Positions 10,676-41,643 of a stretch of 64,000 bases of DNA are shown here, one piece after another. The notes beneath the pieces are model-generated. The model was not told where the DNA came from, did not search any database, and was given only the letters and a program-made list of their open reading frames with translations. Position 1 is the first letter of the stretch; each line of letters begins with the position of its first letter. Origin of the DNA: a virus (Duplodnaviria > Caudoviricetes); IMG/VR virus record IMGVR_UViG_3300029305_005547, positions 1-64,000 of that record; one strand, written 5' to 3'. The position numbers and the translations under genes are program-made.

Positions 10676-13063
10676 GTGGCTAGAAATAACGATAAGAAGT
10701 CTACTAATACTGATGAATTCTCTTCATCAGAAAAGAGACGAAACGATGAATTATTAAAAAATATAGACAGTATGATTAGCCAGATGGAGTTATCCTTGTA
10801 TGGTACTGTAAAGAAAAATGATCATGATTACCTAACGAATCAGTTTAATGAAATTCTTAAAGGTGAAATGAATGGTCTTAACCATACACAGGATAGTGAT
10901 GTTTCATCTTTTATGGCTAAATTATTTGATAATGATAAGAGACTTGGATGGAATAGTCCAGATATCGAATCATTCTTAAATTCAGATGATGGTCAGATTA
11001 TGACATTTCTATCTGATGCATATCAGAATAAGATGCTTAAATATGCAGATCTCCAGGAAATTGCATCTCAGCTCATTGAACTTAGAGAAGCAATTCTGAT
11101 TATGAGAGATGCTATAGTTTCTCCTGATGTAACAGATGGCGGTATTTCAAGACATTTCTTATTTGATTTTGAAACTGAAGAAACCGAAGAAAATATAACT
11201 TCTAAACTTGAGTTTATAGAAAAGAAATTTGGTCTTCAGAAAATTATAAAAGACCACATTGTTCCAAAGACTCTTACATATGGTTCATACTATGCATATG
11301 TATTACCGTATAGTAAGATATTTGCAGATTTTTCTAAAAAGACATCTGATCCAATTACAGGTCAGAGTTTTATTAGTGATGCAAGAAGTTATACAGAAAA
11401 GAGTATTATAGAATCTCTTCATACTGAATCTGCTGGTATTGAAACTAAAAAAGAAAAACAAAAAGAATATGAAGATAAATACTTCACAGAATGTGCTGAA
11501 GACTTTTTAAGTCAGTTCACAGAGTCAGAAAAACAGCATATGAGTAAAGTACATTTTGGTGAGGTAGATCTTAAGAAAGTTAATTTAATAGAGAAAGTTA
11601 AAGAAGAAATCAAAACATACATGGAAAATATTACTGTATGCAATGATGAAATTCCTCTTCCATTTTTACTTGAATCTGTAGATGGTCTTACTGAATACGC
11701 TAATCTGTTTTTGAATGAAGGAGAACAAAACCTTTTCAAAGAAGTAACAAATGTTGATACAGGTGTTTATAAATCAAAGACAGATAAGAAACGTTTGAAA
11801 AAACATGAAAAAGACTTTGAAAATGTATCGGATTGTTACATTAAATTGTGTGATCCTACGCATTTATTTCCGTTAAAAATCTTAAATAAACCTATAGGAT
11901 ATTTCTATATACAGGAAGATGATGTTCGTCCGGTTAATGGTATTATGACAAGTACGACATATTATAATAGATATGATCGTACTGGAAGACAGCGAACCAT
12001 TATTGATAATCTTGTAAATAGAATTGTAATGAGCTTTGATAAAAAATTCTTGCAACAAAATACTGAACTTAAAGAAGTAATTGCTGAAGCACTTATGTAC
12101 TATGATCTCAATAGTAAAAAACTTAAATTCCAGTTTATTCCTGCTGAGTATGTCTGTGAATTTAAAGTTAATGAAGATGAGAATAAGAATGGTGTTTCAA
12201 TGATAGAACCATCATTATTCTATGCAAAGTTGTATTTATTATTACTTCTTTTCAAGATTACATCTATTATTTTATATTCTAATGACCAGAAGGTAAATTA
12301 TATCAGAACTTCAGGTATTGATAAGAATATTAGTAATAAGATTCAGGAAATTGCAAGAGATAAGCAAAACCATAAAGTAAATATTATGGATTTAATGTCA
12401 TATACTACAATGCTTCGAAAAGTTGGTAATGGTACAGAAATGTATATTCCAATGGGAAGAAGTGGCGAACGCGGATATGAAACAGAGATCTTACAGGGTC
12501 AGGAAGTTCAGCTTAATACTGAACTTATGGAACTTTTAAGAAATAGCTATATTTTAGGTACTGGTGTACCTTCTGCTATTATGAATTATTTAAATGAAGC
12601 TGATTTTGCAAAATCAATTGAAACTGCTAATACAAGATTCCAAGGTCGTGTTATGAGCTTACAGATAGACTTCAATTCAACAATTACAGATTTCTACAAA
12701 CTTGTAGCAAAGCATTCCGGAGTTATTGAAGATGAAGATATCGATGAAATTGAAGTTCAATTAACACCTCCTAAATTTGCAAATAATCTTATTAAACAAG
12801 AGTCTCTTACTTCATTTGAAGCTATCAAGACTTTTGTACTTGGATTGTTTCTTGGAGACCAATGGCAGAGCGATCCTACACAGATTGATCTTGCTAAAAA
12901 TCTTACGATTAAGCTTGTTAATAAATATCTTCCTTCTATCGATACAGATGAAATTGAAGAATGGATGGAAGAAATTAAACTTAAAGCAGTTGAAGATAAA
13001 CTTAATCCGGTTAATAAAACAAACACAGATGATATTGATGATTTTAGTGATGATTCAATATAA
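10676..13063 (+). CDS. portal protein (T4 gp20-like, jumbo phage)
   Basis: 795 aa; ELREAILIMRDAIVSPD, GSYYAYV, GTGVPSAIMN, FAKSIETANTRF; late promoter. Confidence 0.75.
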   Translation: MARNNDKKSTNTDEFSSSEKRRNDELLKNIDSMISQMELSLYGTVKKNDHDYLTNQFNEILKGEMNGLNHTQDSDVSSFMAKLFDNDKRLGWNSPDIESFLNSDDGQIMTFLSDAYQNKMLKYADLQEIASQLIELREAILIMRDAIVSPDVTDGGISRHFLFDFETEETEENITSKLEFIEKKFGLQKIIKDHIVPKTLTYGSYYAYVLPYSKIFADFSKKTSDPITGQSFISDARSYTEKSIIESLHTESAGIETKKEKQKEYEDKYFTECAEDFLSQFTESEKQHMSKVHFGEVDLKKVNLIEKVKEEIKTYMENITVCNDEIPLPFLLESVDGLTEYANLFLNEGEQNLFKEVTNVDTGVYKSKTDKKRLKKHEKDFENVSDCYIKLCDPTHLFPLKILNKPIGYFYIQEDDVRPVNGIMTSTTYYNRYDRTGRQRTIIDNLVNRIVMSFDKKFLQQNTELKEVIAEALMYYDLNSKKLKFQFIPAEYVCEFKVNEDENKNGVSMIEPSLFYAKLYLLLLLFKITSIILYSNDQKVNYIRTSGIDKNISNKIQEIARDKQNHKVNIMDLMSYTTMLRKVGNGTEMYIPMGRSGERGYETEILQGQEVQLNTELMELLRNSYILGTGVPSAIMNYLNEADFAKSIETANTRFQGRVMSLQIDFNSTITDFYKLVAKHSGVIEDEDIDEIEVQLTPPKFANNLIKQESLTSFEAIKTFVLGLFLGDQWQSDPTQIDLAKNLTIKLVNKYLPSIDTDEIEEWMEEIKLKAVEDKLNPVNKTNTDDIDDFSDDSI

Positions 13064-18535: not shown

Positions 18536-19240
18536 TTATGGTATTAATAAAAAATTTTCTATTTTTGAAAGTCTATTATCGTGTATTTGTAATAATTTTA
18601 TTATAGGTGATACAAATCTTGAATAATCTATTCCATCAGGTTCATTATTATCATTACATATTACAGGATATGTTAAATATTTATAGACATCTTCTGCAAT
18701 AAGTCCTAAACAATTTACACCATTATTTTCATTGATATAATCATAAATAACAGGTTTTAGTTTTAATAGATCATATGCATATTTATCATCCATGTAATGT
18801 ATATTTTTCTTATATTTAATAGAAGAATCGTTTGTAAAACTTTTTCCGCGCATTCCAACCCATGTCCAAGAACTATCGGTACTACTTGGTGTTTGTAATT
18901 GAATTTCATTTATAGCCATTAATTTTAAATATGAAGTTGAAGATGAATTATTAGCAACAAGATATGTATTATTTCCCTTTGCATAAAAAAATCCTCCAAC
19001 TCCTTGGCTAGTTCCTGTATTTGCATAAAAATGCGCAGTATTTAAAGCTGTAAATGATGTTTTAGATGTAATATTGCCAACAACTGTACCACCACTACTT
19101 AATGATAAATAATCATGTGTATGTGATGAAGATGCATAATTTGAATGTGAATGGTTTGCTGTAGCACAATAACTAGTATAATTTGAAGTTGTAAGCATAC
19201 CGCTATGTGTATGATTAGAAGATGCTTTGTTACTATTTAG
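18536..19240 (-). other. silent tail-fibre tip cassette 1 (HxH repeats plus Peptidase_S74 intramolecular chaperone); frame opens at LNSN inside the repeat
   Basis: LNSNKASSNHTHSG extends the ORF by 14 codons to a TAG in the repeat; SSIKYKKNI...LKPVIYDY...GLIAEDV...IDYSRF; no RBS. Confidence 0.8.
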
Positions 19241-19310
19241 CTAAATAAAGAATCTGTAAGTCTCGAGAAATATCGAGACTTACAGAAAACTTACTTAACT
19301 AAATTCCGTC
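19230..19310 (-). repeat. 81-bp hairpin element, copy 1
   Basis: TTACTATTTAGCTAAATAAAGAATCTGTAAGTCTCGAGAAATATCGAGACTTACAGAAAACTTACTTAACTAAATTCCGTC. Confidence 0.95.
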
Positions 19311-19413
19311 CCCCTCACTTAAATCCAATCTTAAACTTTTGATGAAAAATCATAATTTTTATTGATATATTATTATATTGAATTTATTCATATAATTTCG
19401 GAGGTGATGCAAT

Positions 19414-19931: not shown

Positions 19932-20159
19932 ATGGATAAATTTGTATTCGTAGAAGATTGGTTAGATCTTGAGAAAAATTTTATATCTGTGAAATGTACA
20001 ACTGATAATGCGTTTTATTCTATACTGATTTATACTTATGATGATCCATACACATGTTATTATCAGGAAGGTGTATGTCCGGATAAAAATCTTAAGGAAG
20101 AACTTGAAAAAGAACTCTTCGCATATCTACATTCTAAATATCCAGAACATTGGGATTAA
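19932..20159 (+). CDS. hypothetical protein
   Basis: GAGG RBS; abuts previous ORF. Confidence 0.7.
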   Translation: MDKFVFVEDWLDLEKNFISVKCTTDNAFYSILIYTYDDPYTCYYQEGVCPDKNLKEELEKELFAYLHSKYPEHWD

Positions 20160-20162
20160 ATA

Positions 20163-20193
20163 AAGAGACTACTGGAAATTCCAGTAGTCTCTT
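20163..20193. terminator. bidirectional terminator
   Basis: 15-bp stem AAGAGACTACTGGAA/TTCCAGTAGTCTCTT. Confidence 0.85.
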
Positions 20194-20201
20194 ATTTTTT
20201 T

Positions 20202-21017
20202 TTAAACTTCCTCTAACATGCCGTTATCGGGGTTGTAAGCGGTTCTAACACCAGAATCCTGTTCCATAGTGAACTTAGGACAGAACTGCATAGAGTCCAT
20301 AAGAACCTGATACTTCTCAAGCAACTGCTTAGCAATTGCATTGATCTGAGGGCTGTCATACATAGTACAGCTGAATGTGATATCCATTTCAGCGATACTT
20401 GCTTCACCAGCTCTGTAGTTCAAATGGTCCATCTTGATTGTGGTAGGGAAACAGTTTGCAAACATGCAAGCAAATTCGATACCATTGGATTTACCAGTTC
20501 TATCAGTTACAACATAGAAGAATTCTGCAGTGTGATTAGACTGCTTTACTTCAAGGTCCACACCATGATAGGTTGCGAAACCAGACTGCAGATCCATTAC
20601 ACCAGAAACCCACCAATGAAGTACTTCACCCATAGGTCTACCAGAAAATTCGTAAGTAGATACGGTAAAGGAGTTGGTGTTATTCTTAGCGATTGTAGGG
20701 ATCTGGAATTCACGACCAACGTATCCACCAGTGATAGTTTCACTGTTTACGTCGATATCATTAATTCCGGAAATACCGGTATTTGCATACTCCAAAACAT
20801 GCTTAAATTTCTTAAGCTGCTCAGGAATACCATTCTGTTTATCAAGCATGAAGGTAGGCATTCTTGTCATAAACAATCTAGCTTTACCTCCGATGAAAGG
20901 ATCGTAAGACGCAAGAACGTCGTGTGTTACGTCCAATCCACCAAGAAACAACGCATACTTTGTAAGCTGCGCATCATCATGGGTCTTAATACCCTGCTGA
21001 ATAGTTACTGCTGCCAT
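20202..21017 (-). CDS. tail tube protein
   Basis: directly downstream of sheath; ANCFPTTI...MDITF tube-like pattern; high-expression codon usage. Confidence 0.75.
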   Translation of the reverse strand: MAAVTIQQGIKTHDDAQLTKYALFLGGLDVTHDVLASYDPFIGGKARLFMTRMPTFMLDKQNGIPEQLKKFKHVLEYANTGISGINDIDVNSETITGGYVGREFQIPTIAKNNTNSFTVSTYEFSGRPMGEVLHWWVSGVMDLQSGFATYHGVDLEVKQSNHTAEFFYVVTDRTGKSNGIEFACMFANCFPTTIKMDHLNYRAGEASIAEMDITFSCTMYDSPQINAIAKQLLEKYQVLMDSMQFCPKFTMEQDSGVRTAYNPDNGMLEEV

Positions 21018-21035
21018 TGGTCATACCCTCCTTTC

Positions 21036-23177
21036 TTAAGCCGCATAATCTCTTCTGTTTACGTCGATTTCAATAATAGCTCTCTTCATCAGAGTTCTAA
21101 ACTGAACTTCTACGTAGCAGTGAAGGATCTGTCTGTCGGACTCCCATTCATTCATATCGAATTTAATATCGAAAGAATGAACAAGGCTGCCAATGATATG
21201 TTCGTACTTAGCCGCTTCGATCTGTCTGAAGGTTGCACGCTCAGAAGCGTTAGCAAAGTTGTACAGATTGTCGAATACGTCCTTTTCAATATTTCTCTTA
21301 AGCCACAGAAGAACATGCATATTGCTCTCTTCAGTGAGATCAGAGTTGATAGTCTGAGCGGTATTCTGAATACCTCTCTGGAATACGTTTTCGCCAATGG
21401 CTTCAACGTAGTTAAGTCTCATATTTGCAAGAGTATCCATGAGATCAGCCTCATGAAGATCAACTGCCGGAACGATAGAGTTCTTAGCATGACCTACAAT
21501 TCTTGCATATGCCTTTGCGAAAGGAGTCTGAATACCGTTAGTCTTCCAATGCTTAGGTAATTCAGAAGCAATGAAGTGAGTAGCGGATACAACAACCTTT
21601 CTCTGAGTGAACGGATCAGAAACCTTCCAGTTATGACCGTTCAAAGAAATAATTCTGTTTGCAAAAATACCGCCATAAAGTTTAGCGATGTTCTTAAGAA
21701 CTGCATTAGAGAAGGTATCATATTCAATACCGGTATCAATGTAGCAAAGAGCATCTGCACGAGCGATAGCAAACTGAGCCAAGGAAATCTTTGTGTAGTA
21801 AGAATAGTTAGCATCAAGCAGATAATCTGCAGGAGTACGTCTTACAGACAAGATTGCCTTATCAAGAATACCACTGTATGCTTTTGCATACATATAGTCT
21901 TCTACGGTAGCTTCACCAAACTTAAGATGAGTAATACCTGCTGTTACAGCAGCATTGTAATCCTTAGTGGAAAGCTTTTCAAGAGCGCCGTTAATAGTAG
22001 TCTTCTTCTCAGTATCGATAAATGTACCGAAAGAACCATCGTGACCACCATTTAAGTAAACGCCGATATCGTTACCCATGCTTACACCATATTCATCATC
22101 CGGAATAGGATAAGAATCATTGTCAGGTGTAATAGCCTGGAAATACTCATACTTGGAAGAAGAATTGAGATTCAAACCAAATAAAAGGTCAAACTCATCA
22201 ATTTCAGGAACTTCCAATTCAACGCCTGTATCTTCTGCAAGACCGGTCAAGAATTCAACGTAAGCATCATAAACAGCTTCAACGCTTTCTTCATATACGC
22301 CGATATTTACAGGATACTCACCTGCGTCGTATTCAGAAATAATATCATCAACGAGCATAGACTCGTTATTAATAACGGAAGTAACAAGGCTACCAACATA
22401 TGTAGCAATCTTCTCAAGACCGTTTTCTGCAGACATAACTTCAAAGGTATAGATCTTTCTCTCATAATCCTTCTCATATTCTGCATTCTTTGTGATTCTC
22501 CACTTGTAGTTGTTTCCATAAACACCACGACCGGTGGAGTTAAATTTAATCAGAGGAAGACATGTCCAGCTATTACCTCCATCGGTAGCTTCAATATCTT
22601 CAACGCCAGCTTTAATCAAAGCGTCCATCTCTTTTACTGTGTGAACTGCACTAGTTCCATCAGTAAGTTTATTGGTTGCAGTATCCACGGTAGGAGCAAA
22701 ACTCTTACTACGGAACATAACCTGAAATACCTGCTTCTGAACATCCTTGGTCTGCTGAGTGATACCATCATCACCGTATACAGGATCACCGTTTTCATCA
22801 ACAACACCTTCAGAAACGGTAACGTTTGCTGTACGATAGTATACATAAACACCAGAGTTAGCATAAGTTGCATCATCCGGCATAACTCTCATACAATATA
22901 CAGATGTGTAACCAGATCCAAGAGAAGCATAGGGCATCATAAGCGCCTGACCATATTTCTTATAGTCAGTAGGACCGAATACATTTTTAAATGACTTCTG
23001 GTCTTTCATTTTTACGATTTTATTATCAATACCCTTACCAGATCTGAAGACATGAATCGTTTTGATTGTGTCATCAGTTTCTACAGCAGGAGTATCATAA
23101 ACCTCTGTATTGTCGTAGATAAATGTCTCGACATGAGGGTATTGTCCTTTAGGGACAATCTGGATTGCTGATGCCAT
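21036..23177 (-). CDS. contractile tail sheath protein
   Basis: 713 aa; FKNVFG, YCMRV, LNGGHDG, LLDANY, C-terminal VEVQF..IIEIDV; late promoter at ~23203-23216. Confidence 0.85.
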   Translation of the reverse strand: MASAIQIVPKGQYPHVETFIYDNTEVYDTPAVETDDTIKTIHVFRSGKGIDNKIVKMKDQKSFKNVFGPTDYKKYGQALMMPYASLGSGYTSVYCMRVMPDDATYANSGVYVYYRTANVTVSEGVVDENGDPVYGDDGITQQTKDVQKQVFQVMFRSKSFAPTVDTATNKLTDGTSAVHTVKEMDALIKAGVEDIEATDGGNSWTCLPLIKFNSTGRGVYGNNYKWRITKNAEYEKDYERKIYTFEVMSAENGLEKIATYVGSLVTSVINNESMLVDDIISEYDAGEYPVNIGVYEESVEAVYDAYVEFLTGLAEDTGVELEVPEIDEFDLLFGLNLNSSSKYEYFQAITPDNDSYPIPDDEYGVSMGNDIGVYLNGGHDGSFGTFIDTEKKTTINGALEKLSTKDYNAAVTAGITHLKFGEATVEDYMYAKAYSGILDKAILSVRRTPADYLLDANYSYYTKISLAQFAIARADALCYIDTGIEYDTFSNAVLKNIAKLYGGIFANRIISLNGHNWKVSDPFTQRKVVVSATHFIASELPKHWKTNGIQTPFAKAYARIVGHAKNSIVPAVDLHEADLMDTLANMRLNYVEAIGENVFQRGIQNTAQTINSDLTEESNMHVLLWLKRNIEKDVFDNLYNFANASERATFRQIEAAKYEHIIGSLVHSFDIKFDMNEWESDRQILHCYVEVQFRTLMKRAIIEIDVNRRDYAA

Positions 23178-23246
23178 AAAATATAGCCCTCCTTCTAAAA
23201 TTTTTATATATTTGTTTTGGTTAATTACGGGTCTTTCAACAACAAT

Positions 23247-23972
23247 TTACATCTTAATGATTTCTTCAATAGGTGAAAATTGTTCTGTTCCCTTATTTCG
23301 TGATCGGTTAATAGACGTTGTTAACATACTATCCATATCCTCGAATGTAAGTGATGAGAACGTAGATGCGTACTGACATATTTGCCTAGTTCCGACTGTT
23401 ACGTAAGCATATGGAGAGACATTAATATCTCCACCATAAATTTTAGCAAATGGTTCCGAAAGATTAGATGGGTTTCTATAATTAAGTGCTATAACCATTT
23501 CTTCAACTTCAGGTCTAACACCAAAATTAACTTTATTAACCATCTTATTTTTTTGGCAGAGTGAAGCTGCCATGTCATATGGTACACTGGAAGGAACCTT
23601 TCCATTCATTACCATGTCTAAATACTGTAATGATGACTGTGCATCCTGAATGATTTTTGAATTCATTAATTTCATATTCTTATTATATTTAAGAACCTTA
23701 CATGGTGTTTCTCCACCAGGTAAGTTGACATTTCTGTTTTCTGAATCATATACATACACAGTTATCTGATACGGTTGTTTCATAACTCTATAATTCTTGA
23801 GTTTTCCATTTTCGAAAATTCCTACATAAAATAACCCCAAAGTTTCAATATATGAAGAATAATCGATTGCATATCTTTTACTTTGGTCGAAAAATTCAAG
23901 TGGAATATAAAATTCCATATAGTCGGTATCTAGGTAGACATAATTGCTATCTTTACGAAAATAACCAGCCAT
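23247..23972 (-). CDS. probable RNAP beta' C-terminal fragment (separate subunit)
   Basis: AAAGGAGG RBS before ATG 23972; GV..EMVIA..., STFSSLTFEDMDSMLTTSI similar to SF.SAASFQETTRVLTEAA, SPIEEII; late promoter. Confidence 0.6.
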   Translation of the reverse strand: MAGYFRKDSNYVYLDTDYMEFYIPLEFFDQSKRYAIDYSSYIETLGLFYVGIFENGKLKNYRVMKQPYQITVYVYDSENRNVNLPGGETPCKVLKYNKNMKLMNSKIIQDAQSSLQYLDMVMNGKVPSSVPYDMAASLCQKNKMVNKVNFGVRPEVEEMVIALNYRNPSNLSEPFAKIYGGDINVSPYAYVTVGTRQICQYASTFSSLTFEDMDSMLTTSINRSRNKGTEQFSPIEEIIKM

Positions 23973-24042
23973 GAGTCCCTCCTTTCCACCAAAAGTATCC
24001 GAGCTTAGTAAACTGTTTTTCAAGTTAAAAATCGGATAAATT

Positions 24043-24359
24043 GACCGGAGTGAGCATTGTAAACTCACTCCGGTCTCAGGTTATTTTTGCCGTCTTAGGT
24101 ACTACTTTATCACTGTGTATTGATGCTGTTGGATCCATTCCTAACCGCTAAACACCGTGAGTAGTGTTTCCTCCTATTCGGCTTATTTTGCTCGGCATCT
24201 TCCGAGCCCTTGTAATGCATAGGTACAGACACATCCATCAATGGCGGCACAAGCGCGGCCAAATCCCACATACCCCGACCAGAACTAAATCTGACGGGTC
24301 TCATCCATCCAAGGCAGCGCAATTATCCGGTTGCCGCAAAGGTCCATACCCTTTGCATT
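24043..24359 (-). ncRNA. candidate structured ncRNA (~315 nt)
   Basis: GC-rich intergenic island; AACA-N6-TAA promoter at 24358-24370; multiple stems; terminal hairpin 24043-24075. Confidence 0.6.
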
Positions 24360-27217: not shown

Positions 27218-27853
27218 TTATTGATATATAACAAGACCTAATCTTACATTTCCATTTATAGGTGTTATATTTTCATGATCTGAAGTATCTACTATTAAAC
27301 GTTTCATTGCTATAATTCTAATGTATGTTGTAGAAGAATCATACATATATGATGCAAATCCTTGCTCACTTTCAACTACAACTAACACTACTGACGGTCT
27401 TGTTGAAACTCCAACATCACTAAATTGAATAACTATCTCACCTCTAGTACATGTTACTACTTTGGAACCTACATAAACAGGTGTTGTTGGTTTACCTGTT
27501 AAAGCCGCATAAACATGTGTGTGAGATGATGATGCATATCCAGTATGAGTATGATTTGATGTTGCATAACCACTATGGGTATGGGATGCAGAGGCGCAAT
27601 AAGTAGAATAATTATTCGCATCCAGAATAGTTCTCCAGTTTTGCCACGATCCAGATGCTTTTGTTCTATGCGATATCTGAGAATCTAAACCACATTTGAT
27701 TTGTGACATGAAATTGTTATCCCATGTAATATGAATCATATTTGTTGTTTGGTCGCCAGTTGAATTATATGTTGTAGAATAAAATCCATTATTAGATAAA
27801 GAATCAATTGTTGAGTATACTACATTCGTTTTAGTAATTACCTTACTATTTAG
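27218..27853 (-). other. silent tail-fibre tip cassette 2 (knob-like domain, HxH repeats, C-terminal beta domain); frame opens at LNSK inside the repeat
   Basis: frame extends 38 codons upstream of the listed ATG to a TAG in the repeat; NGFY...HRTKASGSWQNW; SHTH/NHTH repeats; no RBS. Confidence 0.8.
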
Positions 27854-27923
27854 CTAAATAAAGAATCTGTAAGTCCCGAGAAATATCGAGACTTACAGAA
27901 ATTTTACTTAACTAAATTCCGTC
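27843..27923 (-). repeat. 81-bp hairpin element, copy 2
   Basis: three substitutions relative to copy 1. Confidence 0.95.
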
Positions 27924-41458: not shown

Positions 41459-41518
41459 GAATCTGTAAGTCCCGAGAAATATCAAGACTTACAGAAAACT
41501 TACTTAACTAAATTCCGT
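41459..41518 (-). repeat. truncated (60-bp), cassette-less copy of the hairpin element
   Basis: GAATCTGTAAGTCCCGAGAAATATCAAGACTTACAGAAAACTTACTTAACTAAATTCCGT; lacks the TTACTATTTAGCTAAATAAA arm. Confidence 0.9.
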
Positions 41519-41643
41519 GACAACTTCACTATCACATCTATTTTAGATTAATACAAATCGTGATATAAATTATATCAATATTTTACTTATTTATTTTGTA
41601 GAAATATATTATTTCTATGAATAAAATATAGGAGGTACTTACA

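Follow-up and report, generated by a model that had tools for sequence, protein, structure and literature searches.

An 81-base fold-back element as the putative filler of sockets for tail-fibre tip switching in a large phage

The 81-base fold-back element that recurs through this phage genome was most readily interpreted as the filler of an empty socket, within a system that would switch tail-fibre tips at the DNA level by means of an Xer-like phage recombinase; the inner hairpin of the element would act as a transcription terminator. This reading is advanced with moderate confidence. The window (i.e., the whole stretch of DNA analysed, 64,000 nucleotides) comprised the first 64 kb of a record of 278,849 bp, in which 18 copies of the element were found, 5 in minus sense and 13 in plus sense. 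Copies were 94–100% identical across these 18 sites. The sockets spanned 19 kb to 172 kb of the genome, 13 being direct and 5 inverted relative to the single promoter-bearing front part of the fibre gene (the 'head'). Features within the window are listed in Table 1.

Under the proposed mechanism, the outer arms of the element would represent a pair of recombination boxes in inverted orientation that differ slightly from each other. The left box measures 18 nt, and the right box terminates in an 11-nt core that is read in frame as LNS. On paper the boxes pair as versions of one site, and a hairpin would not be required. Between them would lie either a 51-nt filler, in which case the tip is silent, or a 1.65-kb head comprising the promoter and the first 374 fibre codons, in which case the tip is expressed. 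A single Xer-like tyrosine recombinase would swap head and filler, or neighbouring segments, by crossing over at the left box and at the right core. In such a double crossover, two left boxes would recombine with each other, as would two right cores, the boxes behaving as heterospecific duplex sites; this would serve sockets in either orientation and would keep one head per genome. The G-T pairs of the outer stem would then be the differences that keep left and right boxes distinct, and could favour either strand in different lineages, while the inner hairpin and its U-run would stop sense RNA and so insulate the silent tip. As an observation in its own right, a short G-rich run (e.g., GGGGGA) occurred just upstream of the left box in most copies of all four lineages (for instance at 19310–19325 and 56881–56890 of the window, and at the loci of phage B, L102 and L104), the genomes having about 30% G+C; its sequence varied between copies.

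Table 1. Element copies and start-less tips in the window
Feature	Position	Strand	Details
Element copy 1	19230–19310	-	left box 19292–19309; outer-stem arms 19290–19304 and 19235–19249; inner hairpin 19253–19286
Right core of copy 1 (CTAAATAGTAA)	19230–19240	-	end of element copy 1
Start-less tip 1	18536–19240	-	234 aa, begins LNSN; HxH repeats; C-terminal Peptidase_S74 chaperone domain (PF13884, 1.6e-5)
Element copy 2	27843–27923	-	inner hairpin 27866–27899; one T-G pair in inner stem
Start-less tip 2	27218–27853	-	211 aa, begins LNSK; first Met is residue 39
Partial copy 3	41459–41519	-	left box and inner hairpin with two T-G pairs; without right box, without tip
Element copy 4	56800–56880	-	right-box G of one outer G-T pair is A, giving a Watson-Crick pair
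Start-less tip 4	56484–56810	-	108 aa, begins LNSK

Sixteen of the 18 copies directly preceded an in-frame open reading frame (ORF) of 94–457 aa that had no start codon, and that began CTA AAT AGT (LNS) after an in-frame stop. This frame begins within the 3' arm of the outer stem, where the original prediction had located the junction between stop and LNS. Two tip ORFs contained no Met at all and three had none before residue 93, while none of the 18 copies had an upstream ORF running into it. At approximately 0.08 stops per codon, in a genome of 30% G+C, the chance of each frame being open was less than 1e-3 by our own arithmetic. Tip sequences displayed HxH repeats and YLPLSGGT motifs, and Peptidase_S74 was detected in two of them; the first tip matched the C-terminal 210 positions of the phrog_372 tail protein (743 positions) and also the phrog_1980 tail fiber protein. 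The tip products were identified on this basis as tail-fibre ends. Tips on the left side of the socket, such as might be used after inversion of the head, were sought and rejected, as leftward frames were just 6–29 aa long here and 6–49 aa in phage B, a relative described below. With respect to base composition, positions 20000–24000 of the window had a G+C content of 0.36–0.40, compared with ~0.30 elsewhere; this stretch covers the minus-strand ORFs 21036–23177 and 23247–24068, and overlapping plus- and minus-strand ORFs at 20202–21560.

Several tips ended in ...SLSGTTLTIT, stopped at TAG, and were followed by GGAGG-ATG and a second gene. Since these second genes have a normal GGAGG and ATG, translation initiation is conventional and the missing tip starts are real. 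A conserved second gene (MSIIVNGTTIPT...) was seen at L033:8365–8847, and after the tips at genome positions 100428, 119486, 125352, 126476 and 172319; the second gene after tips had no family match, and perhaps encodes a fibre partner or an assembly protein. Translational routes into the tips were considered and discarded. Ribosomal bypass of the T4 gene 60 type, or a frameshift over the hairpin, was rejected because at no copy did an upstream ORF terminate within the 5' arm, and because both AUUUAG motifs lie out of frame; recoding of TAG was rejected because in-frame TAA codons occur further upstream inside the element; and a Shine-Dalgarno sequence bridged by the hairpin to a non-AUG start was rejected because no start codon follows the stem, either in this phage or in phage B.

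A single full fibre gene was present in the genome, outside the window at 136210–138090, and its junction (...QIDT|LNSN) lay on the same 11-nt core, without the hairpin. The 18 nt after this junction were identical to those of the tip at 71379. A lone 18-nt left box was located at 135681, 1.65 kb upstream of the LNS junction of the fibre gene; at the expressed locus, therefore, the boxes flank a 1.65-kb head (a promoter region plus 374 codons) in place of the 51-nt filler. Only 6 nt of the left box can pair with the right core at this locus. Searches of Pfam and PHROGs gave no match for the head, for most tips, or for a 56-aa ORF that lies inside the head module on the opposite strand (L031:1851–2018, minus; approximately 135850–136017 of the genome). 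This small ORF was also called as a gene in L100 and L101, and could be a regulator or a directionality factor.

When the head was used in a protein search, heads of 95%, 74%, 71% and 66% identity were recovered, joined to unrelated tips exactly at LNS; in lineage B the head-tip junction reads LNC instead of LNS. Different head-tip and head-socket combinations are shown in related DNA. In locus L100 of a related strain, the flank corresponding to genome 96048–96112 was followed by the left box and then by the head, so that the head fills a socket that is held in this phage by the dead copy 96118. That copy (genome 96095–96180; L013:1503–1583) was observed to have a one-base insertion in its right core and no tip behind it. 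The partial type of copy 3, together with its upstream flank, also ends locus L100. In L101 the head occupied the same locus as in this phage, with a different tip and second gene, while in L099 (lineage B) the head and one tip adjoined a region that is 60 kb distant in the complete B genome, forming a rearranged module. The overlaps of matching segments in these strain comparisons place the exchange points within two stretches, the left box of 18 nt and the right core of 11 nt. Joining of head and tip by RNA trans-splicing or ligation was rejected, because the fusions are present in the DNA assemblies of related strains and RtcB was not found.

Phage B has a genome of 275,512 bp with terminal repeats, and contained 35 start-less tips headed by the element. 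In both phages the tips were dispersed over ~150–190 kb, in both orientations and among other genes (16 tips here, 35 in the relative). For lineages C and D only short contigs are available; those of lineage D contained four or more sockets, each in inverted orientation with respect to the head, and no left box near the head; its layout looks like a plain inversion shufflon, as far as can be judged from the contigs. More distant fibre relatives (L109 and L111) had no repeated element. No match was obtained among GenBank phages by DNA. In IMG/VR, the exact inner hairpin gave 0 matches, the right box gave one chance match, and the lineage C and D patterns gave none or chance matches only; a pattern scan of JGI metagenomes gave 0 matches. 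Other genes were seen near these fibre loci. A lineage D contig carried a reverse transcriptase gene (RVT_1; L103:9266–10414) ~2.2 kb downstream of its fibre gene, which may represent a diversity-generating retroelement beside the cassette switch. Genes for a polyphosphate kinase and a PARG-like protein were found near the fibre locus of phage B (L046:2162–4204 and 11935–12759).

One tyrosine recombinase was identified, at genome 64172–65194, just beyond the window. It scored 231 bits against the XerA model (cut-off 220), compared with 82.7 bits for the integron integrase model TIGR02249 (cut-off 265) and 50.6 bits for PRK15417 (cut-off 435), and its nearest solved relatives were XerC-like, XerA and XerD; by these comparisons the enzyme is classed as Xer-like. 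Phage B has an ortholog of 73% identity. The gene maps to 64.2 kb and the head to 136 kb, and the putative link between recombinase and element is drawn from their co-occurrence in two genomes only. The record of 278,849 bp was searched for serine recombinases, Y1 HUH proteins, reverse transcriptases and RtcB, and contained none; the Y1 HUH family (PF01797) was absent from it, while control genomes gave matches. Retrohoming, or a diversity-generating retroelement, was rejected as an explanation since no reverse transcriptase was found.

Some observations tell against the mechanism as proposed. At 11 and 18 nt, the core and the left box are short for complete Xer-type sites, and a second binding arm was not found at the head locus. 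The 14-6-14 inner palindrome also fits the core site of a tyrosine recombinase, and so it might be the palindrome (14-bp arms with an asymmetric 6-bp centre) that provides a duplex core or accessory site for the Xer-like enzyme, its symmetry reflecting the binding of a dimer and not a hairpin. Its layout resembles that of loxP or dif-type sites. Lineages A and D have almost identical 6-bp centres and arms that differ by compensatory changes, and no lineage of the four, phage B included, departs from TCT.TA / TA.AGA at the base of the inner stem. However, the head locus is entirely without the palindrome, yet the head is found in different sockets in different strains; phage B has the orthologous recombinase but a degenerate palindrome; and the exchange points derived from strain comparison fall in the outer boxes. 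We consider a role as recombination site unlikely for the inner palindrome, and continue to place the putative sites in the outer boxes.

The fold that had drawn attention to the element was recovered by computation. On the minus strand of copy 1, an outer stem of 15 bp is separated by a 3x3 internal loop from an inner stem of 14 bp, which is closed by a loop of 6 nt, in agreement with the layout first described (an outer stem of 14–15 bp, a 3x3 loop, an inner stem of 14 bp and a 6-nt loop). As RNA, the minimum free energy of copy 1 was -36.9 kcal/mol on the minus strand (z = -9.0) against -26.7 kcal/mol on the plus strand (z = -7.5). Corresponding values were -35.8 and -23.7 kcal/mol for the copy at 27843–27923, -35.4 and -28.0 kcal/mol for that at 56800–56880, and -25.1 and -14.7 kcal/mol for that at 41459–41519, which is without the 3' outer arm. 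When both strands of all copies were folded, the cassette-sense strand was favoured in 18 of 18, with means of -34.4 and -24.6 kcal/mol (a difference of ~10). With DNA parameters the strands differed by only 1.7–3.4 kcal/mol (-17.7 versus -16.0; -16.4 versus -13.0), and so the asymmetry is large only for RNA.

The outer stem in this phage contained two fixed G-T pairs, and T at the stem edge faced either G or A. In the inner stem, 10 of 18 copies carried a T-G, to which the copy at 41495 added a second. The original prediction, that stem deviations are all G-U on the cassette-sense strand, was borne out by the pair table for the window; exceptions were confined to copies outside it, namely a G-A mismatch in two copies (118120 and 171783) and A-C at the stem edge in four. 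The number of informative positions had been thought small, and about five transitions were counted. Since these positions are few, and since the copies share ancestry and are not independent, the strand bias has a two-sided chance of ~0.06 (five of five transitions on one strand, by our own arithmetic).

When oriented in the sense direction, the element aligned gap-free among this phage, phage B and lineage D, and a gap-free alignment over three lineages hints at some geometric constraint outside the socket model. The better-folding strand differed among them. In this phage the sense strand was better throughout, and the 14-bp inner stem had only G-T deviations save the G-A in two copies. In phage B the antisense strand was better in 35 of 35 in-register copies (-23.3 versus -18.5 kcal/mol); the outer stem had two A-C and a T-T, the A-C positions being G-T only on the antisense strand, and 4–7 of the 14 inner pairs were broken. 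In lineage D the sense strand was better by only 2–3 kcal/mol, with an A-C at column 16–65, a G-A and a T-T in the outer stem, and one T-G in the 14-bp inner stem; column 16–65 is A-C in lineage D and G-T in this phage. Summed over lineages, the outer-stem deviations comprised ~3 on the sense strand, 4 on the antisense strand and 3 transversions. Wobbles were therefore split between strands among homologues, which is the outcome that the original prediction had itself named as telling against it. Strand bias alone is a weak signal and not a conserved property in relatives, and it is unfit as evidence for an attC-like or HUH-like site.

Seven pairs of the element changed on both sides, and the covariation score among homologues was 0.213, compared with 0.128 in shuffles; 0 of 500 shuffles scored as high, and slid controls remained below 0.08. 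By this measure the symmetry is selected. The covariation is compatible with a hairpin, and with a single protein-binding site present as two inverted copies as well. In every lineage, the left box departed from the complement of the right box at 2–3 positions, which varied among lineages in both column and kind; such persistent differences fit sites that are barred from mutual recombination better than they fit a selected hairpin. The filler of phage B looked mosaic, its 5' inner arm being like that of lineage D and its 3' inner arm like that of this phage, with the result that its inner stem no longer pairs. This mosaic hints at past exchange within the filler.

These data bear on whether the element is recombined in the manner of attC, as a folded single DNA strand in which stem, loop and stem provide two recombinase-binding duplexes and the wobbles mark an active strand that may vary by lineage. 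Such a reading would accommodate the uniform strand bias within each genome (18/18 sense here, 35/35 antisense in phage B), the layout of stem, 3x3 loop, stem and loop, the compensatory changes that preserve symmetry, the conservation of element length without gaps, and a recombinase belonging to the Xer/integron-integrase superfamily. Nevertheless, it is distinctly unlikely: uniformity within a genome reflects the shared ancestry of copies and not independent events; transversion mismatches occur in the outer stems of phage B and lineage D; the inner stem of phage B is mostly unpaired; the gap with DNA parameters is only 1.7–3.4 kcal/mol; the head locus pairs only 6 nt of left box with right core; the integron-integrase model gave 82.7 bits against its cut-off of 265; and the element is near-invariant within a genome, as attC sites are not. 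The fuller version of this idea, in which the element is a structure-specific single-stranded substrate, by which the Xer-like recombinase of a jumbo phage swaps a promoter-bearing half-gene among dozens of sockets, and for which the active strand has switched between lineages, we hold to be improbable. Were it true, an integron-like mechanism would be operating on gene halves inside a virus.

The original prediction, that the site acts as a folded single strand and not as a double-stranded palindrome, can be retained in part. Only the inner hairpin is a plausible folded single strand, in the form of RNA, on account of its compensatory pairs, its sense-strand G-U pairs and its U-run; the general claim is opposed by the antisense preference of 35/35 phage B copies, the A-C, G-A and T-T of lineage D, the small gap with DNA parameters, and an expressed locus that is free of the hairpin. 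The inner stem of this phage and that of lineage D differ at three pairs (columns 27–54, 30–51 and 31–50), in each of which compensatory transversions preserve pairing, and the wobbles of the stem were all G-T on the sense strand: at column 34–47 in this phage and lineage D, at 35–46 in the copy at 41495, and at the loop-closing pair in a partial lineage C copy. Of the 14 bp in the hairpin stem, 6 are G-C; the loop is 6 nt long, and a U-rich run is present on one strand only. In lineages A, C and D the sense strand carried a T-run immediately after the stem. For copy 1, the inner hairpin and TTCTTTATTT produced a terminator-like call on the minus strand only. In our own scan, 15 of 18 copies had the G+C-containing stem-loop and U-run of an intrinsic terminator on the transcribed strand. 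We infer that the inner hairpin of this phage and of lineages C and D acts as an intrinsic terminator on the sense strand and thereby shields the silent tip; a role of this kind would explain why G-U is tolerated in the inner stem on that strand.

Insulation of this kind would not be essential, since phage B keeps 35 silent tips without a hairpin terminator. Phage B was without both the inner stem and the T-run, and in the 150 nt upstream of its sockets a terminator-like site was present in only 4 of 35 cases. At several window sockets, such as 27843–27923, no gene lay close upstream on the same strand, and so there would be little transcription to stop there. The hairpin might have some RNA role other than termination, as an RNase III-type processing site, as a stabilising 3' hairpin for upstream transcripts, or as a block to translation into the tip. 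A 29-bp interrupted helix of approximately -35 kcal/mol with only G-U deviations would suit such a role, as would the presence of stops in all frames within the element. We think it quite improbable, given that Rfam 15 gave no family match at gathering score anywhere in the window, that phage B is without the fold, and that most copies have no upstream ORF in need of such a structure. Termination is retained as the preferred function of the inner hairpin.

It is highly improbable that the element is a MITE-like non-autonomous transposon, with the boxes as its terminal inverted repeats and the head as a cargo version moved by a transposase. It does have 14-bp terminal inverted repeats, a length of ~80 bp and many copies, and the same boxes flank the head. 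However, all copies preceded a fibre tip in an identical frame, with none elsewhere; the right repeat forms part of a coding junction; the flanks showed no target-site duplications; and a Y1 transposase was not found, in a search that covered the Y1 family.

Comparison with known systems began with those that the layout of the element had been said to recall, namely integron attC sites and the hairpins of HUH transposases; box order, sequence invariance, strand consistency and the enzyme all speak against these. As in the attC/IntI system, an imperfect two-stem palindrome with an unpaired spacer stands at promoterless cassettes, and a tyrosine recombinase is present. In attC sites, however, the boxes are ordered 5'-R'' (RYYYAAC)...R' (GTTRRRY)-3' with crossover in R', whereas here they read 5'-GTTRRRY...RYYYAAC-3'; the left box has GTTAAGT (GTTRRRY) on its 5' side, and the 3' complement is ACTTAAC in phage B and ATTTAGC here. 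This test of box order upheld the earlier remark that the GTT/AAC boxes point outward and that the site is not a canonical attC. Between attC cassettes, structure is conserved and sequence is variable, whereas the sequence here is near-invariant (94–100%); only the bottom strand of attC is recombinogenic, whereas the better-folding strand here flips between relatives. The recombinase falls far below the IntI cut-off, and unlike an integron the cassettes are half-genes fused in frame, with no array and no attI. Similarly, the element does not match the hairpin ends of IS200/IS605-type HUH elements, as PF01797 was absent and the hairpin is the whole filler and not a subterminal end. The inner hairpin is like an intrinsic terminator in having a stem-loop followed by a U-run on one strand, with G-U pairs tolerated; it is unlike one in being embedded in a longer palindrome, in being 94–100% identical at 18 sites, and in being absent from phage B.

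DNA inversion systems of related type include the R64 Rci/sfx shufflon, p15B Min, Mu Gin and P1 Cin. The nearest described system is the Rin shufflon of Bifidobacterium prophages, in which a constant part of a receptor-binding protein is joined to start-less variable parts through 11-bp asymmetric rix sites and an armless XerD-like recombinase (PMC6109161). Both systems join a constant N-terminal receptor-binding part to alternative start-less C-terminal parts that share a short, asymmetric, in-frame crossover (11 bp in Rin, an 11-nt core here), and both have an Xer-type recombinase without an arm-binding domain (XerD-like in Rin, Xer-like here). Unlike Rin, the tips do not form one invertible cluster by an adjacent recombinase, and 13 of the 18 sockets are direct relative to the head; the tips are dispersed in both orientations between other genes, and in front of each lies a fold-back filler of 81 bp that contains a second (left) box. 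Descriptions of the rix sites include no hairpin, and here the promoter and constant part are flanked by both boxes and occupy sockets that differ among strains. A literature search returned no description of dispersed two-box sockets with a movable head. What is unusual is that 16 start-less receptor-binding tips in a large phage, and 35 in a relative, are scattered behind one conserved socket, and that the socket holding the sole promoter-bearing front half of the fibre gene differs among strains. The parts of the socket can be told apart, the boxes as putative sequence sites and the inner hairpin as probably a transcription stop, which guides the first mutations to be made.

The arrangement is also like recombinase-mediated cassette exchange, a laboratory method that uses heterospecific lox or FRT sites, in that two non-identical sites flank either insert, and a double reciprocal crossover would swap the inserts while leaving the flanks unchanged. 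It differs in that the sites here are deduced from sequence comparison only. We know of no natural example of such exchange. If the Xer-like enzyme does drive the exchange of heads and fillers, then these phages would provide its natural counterpart, with a host-range repertoire far larger than those of the known inversion switches.
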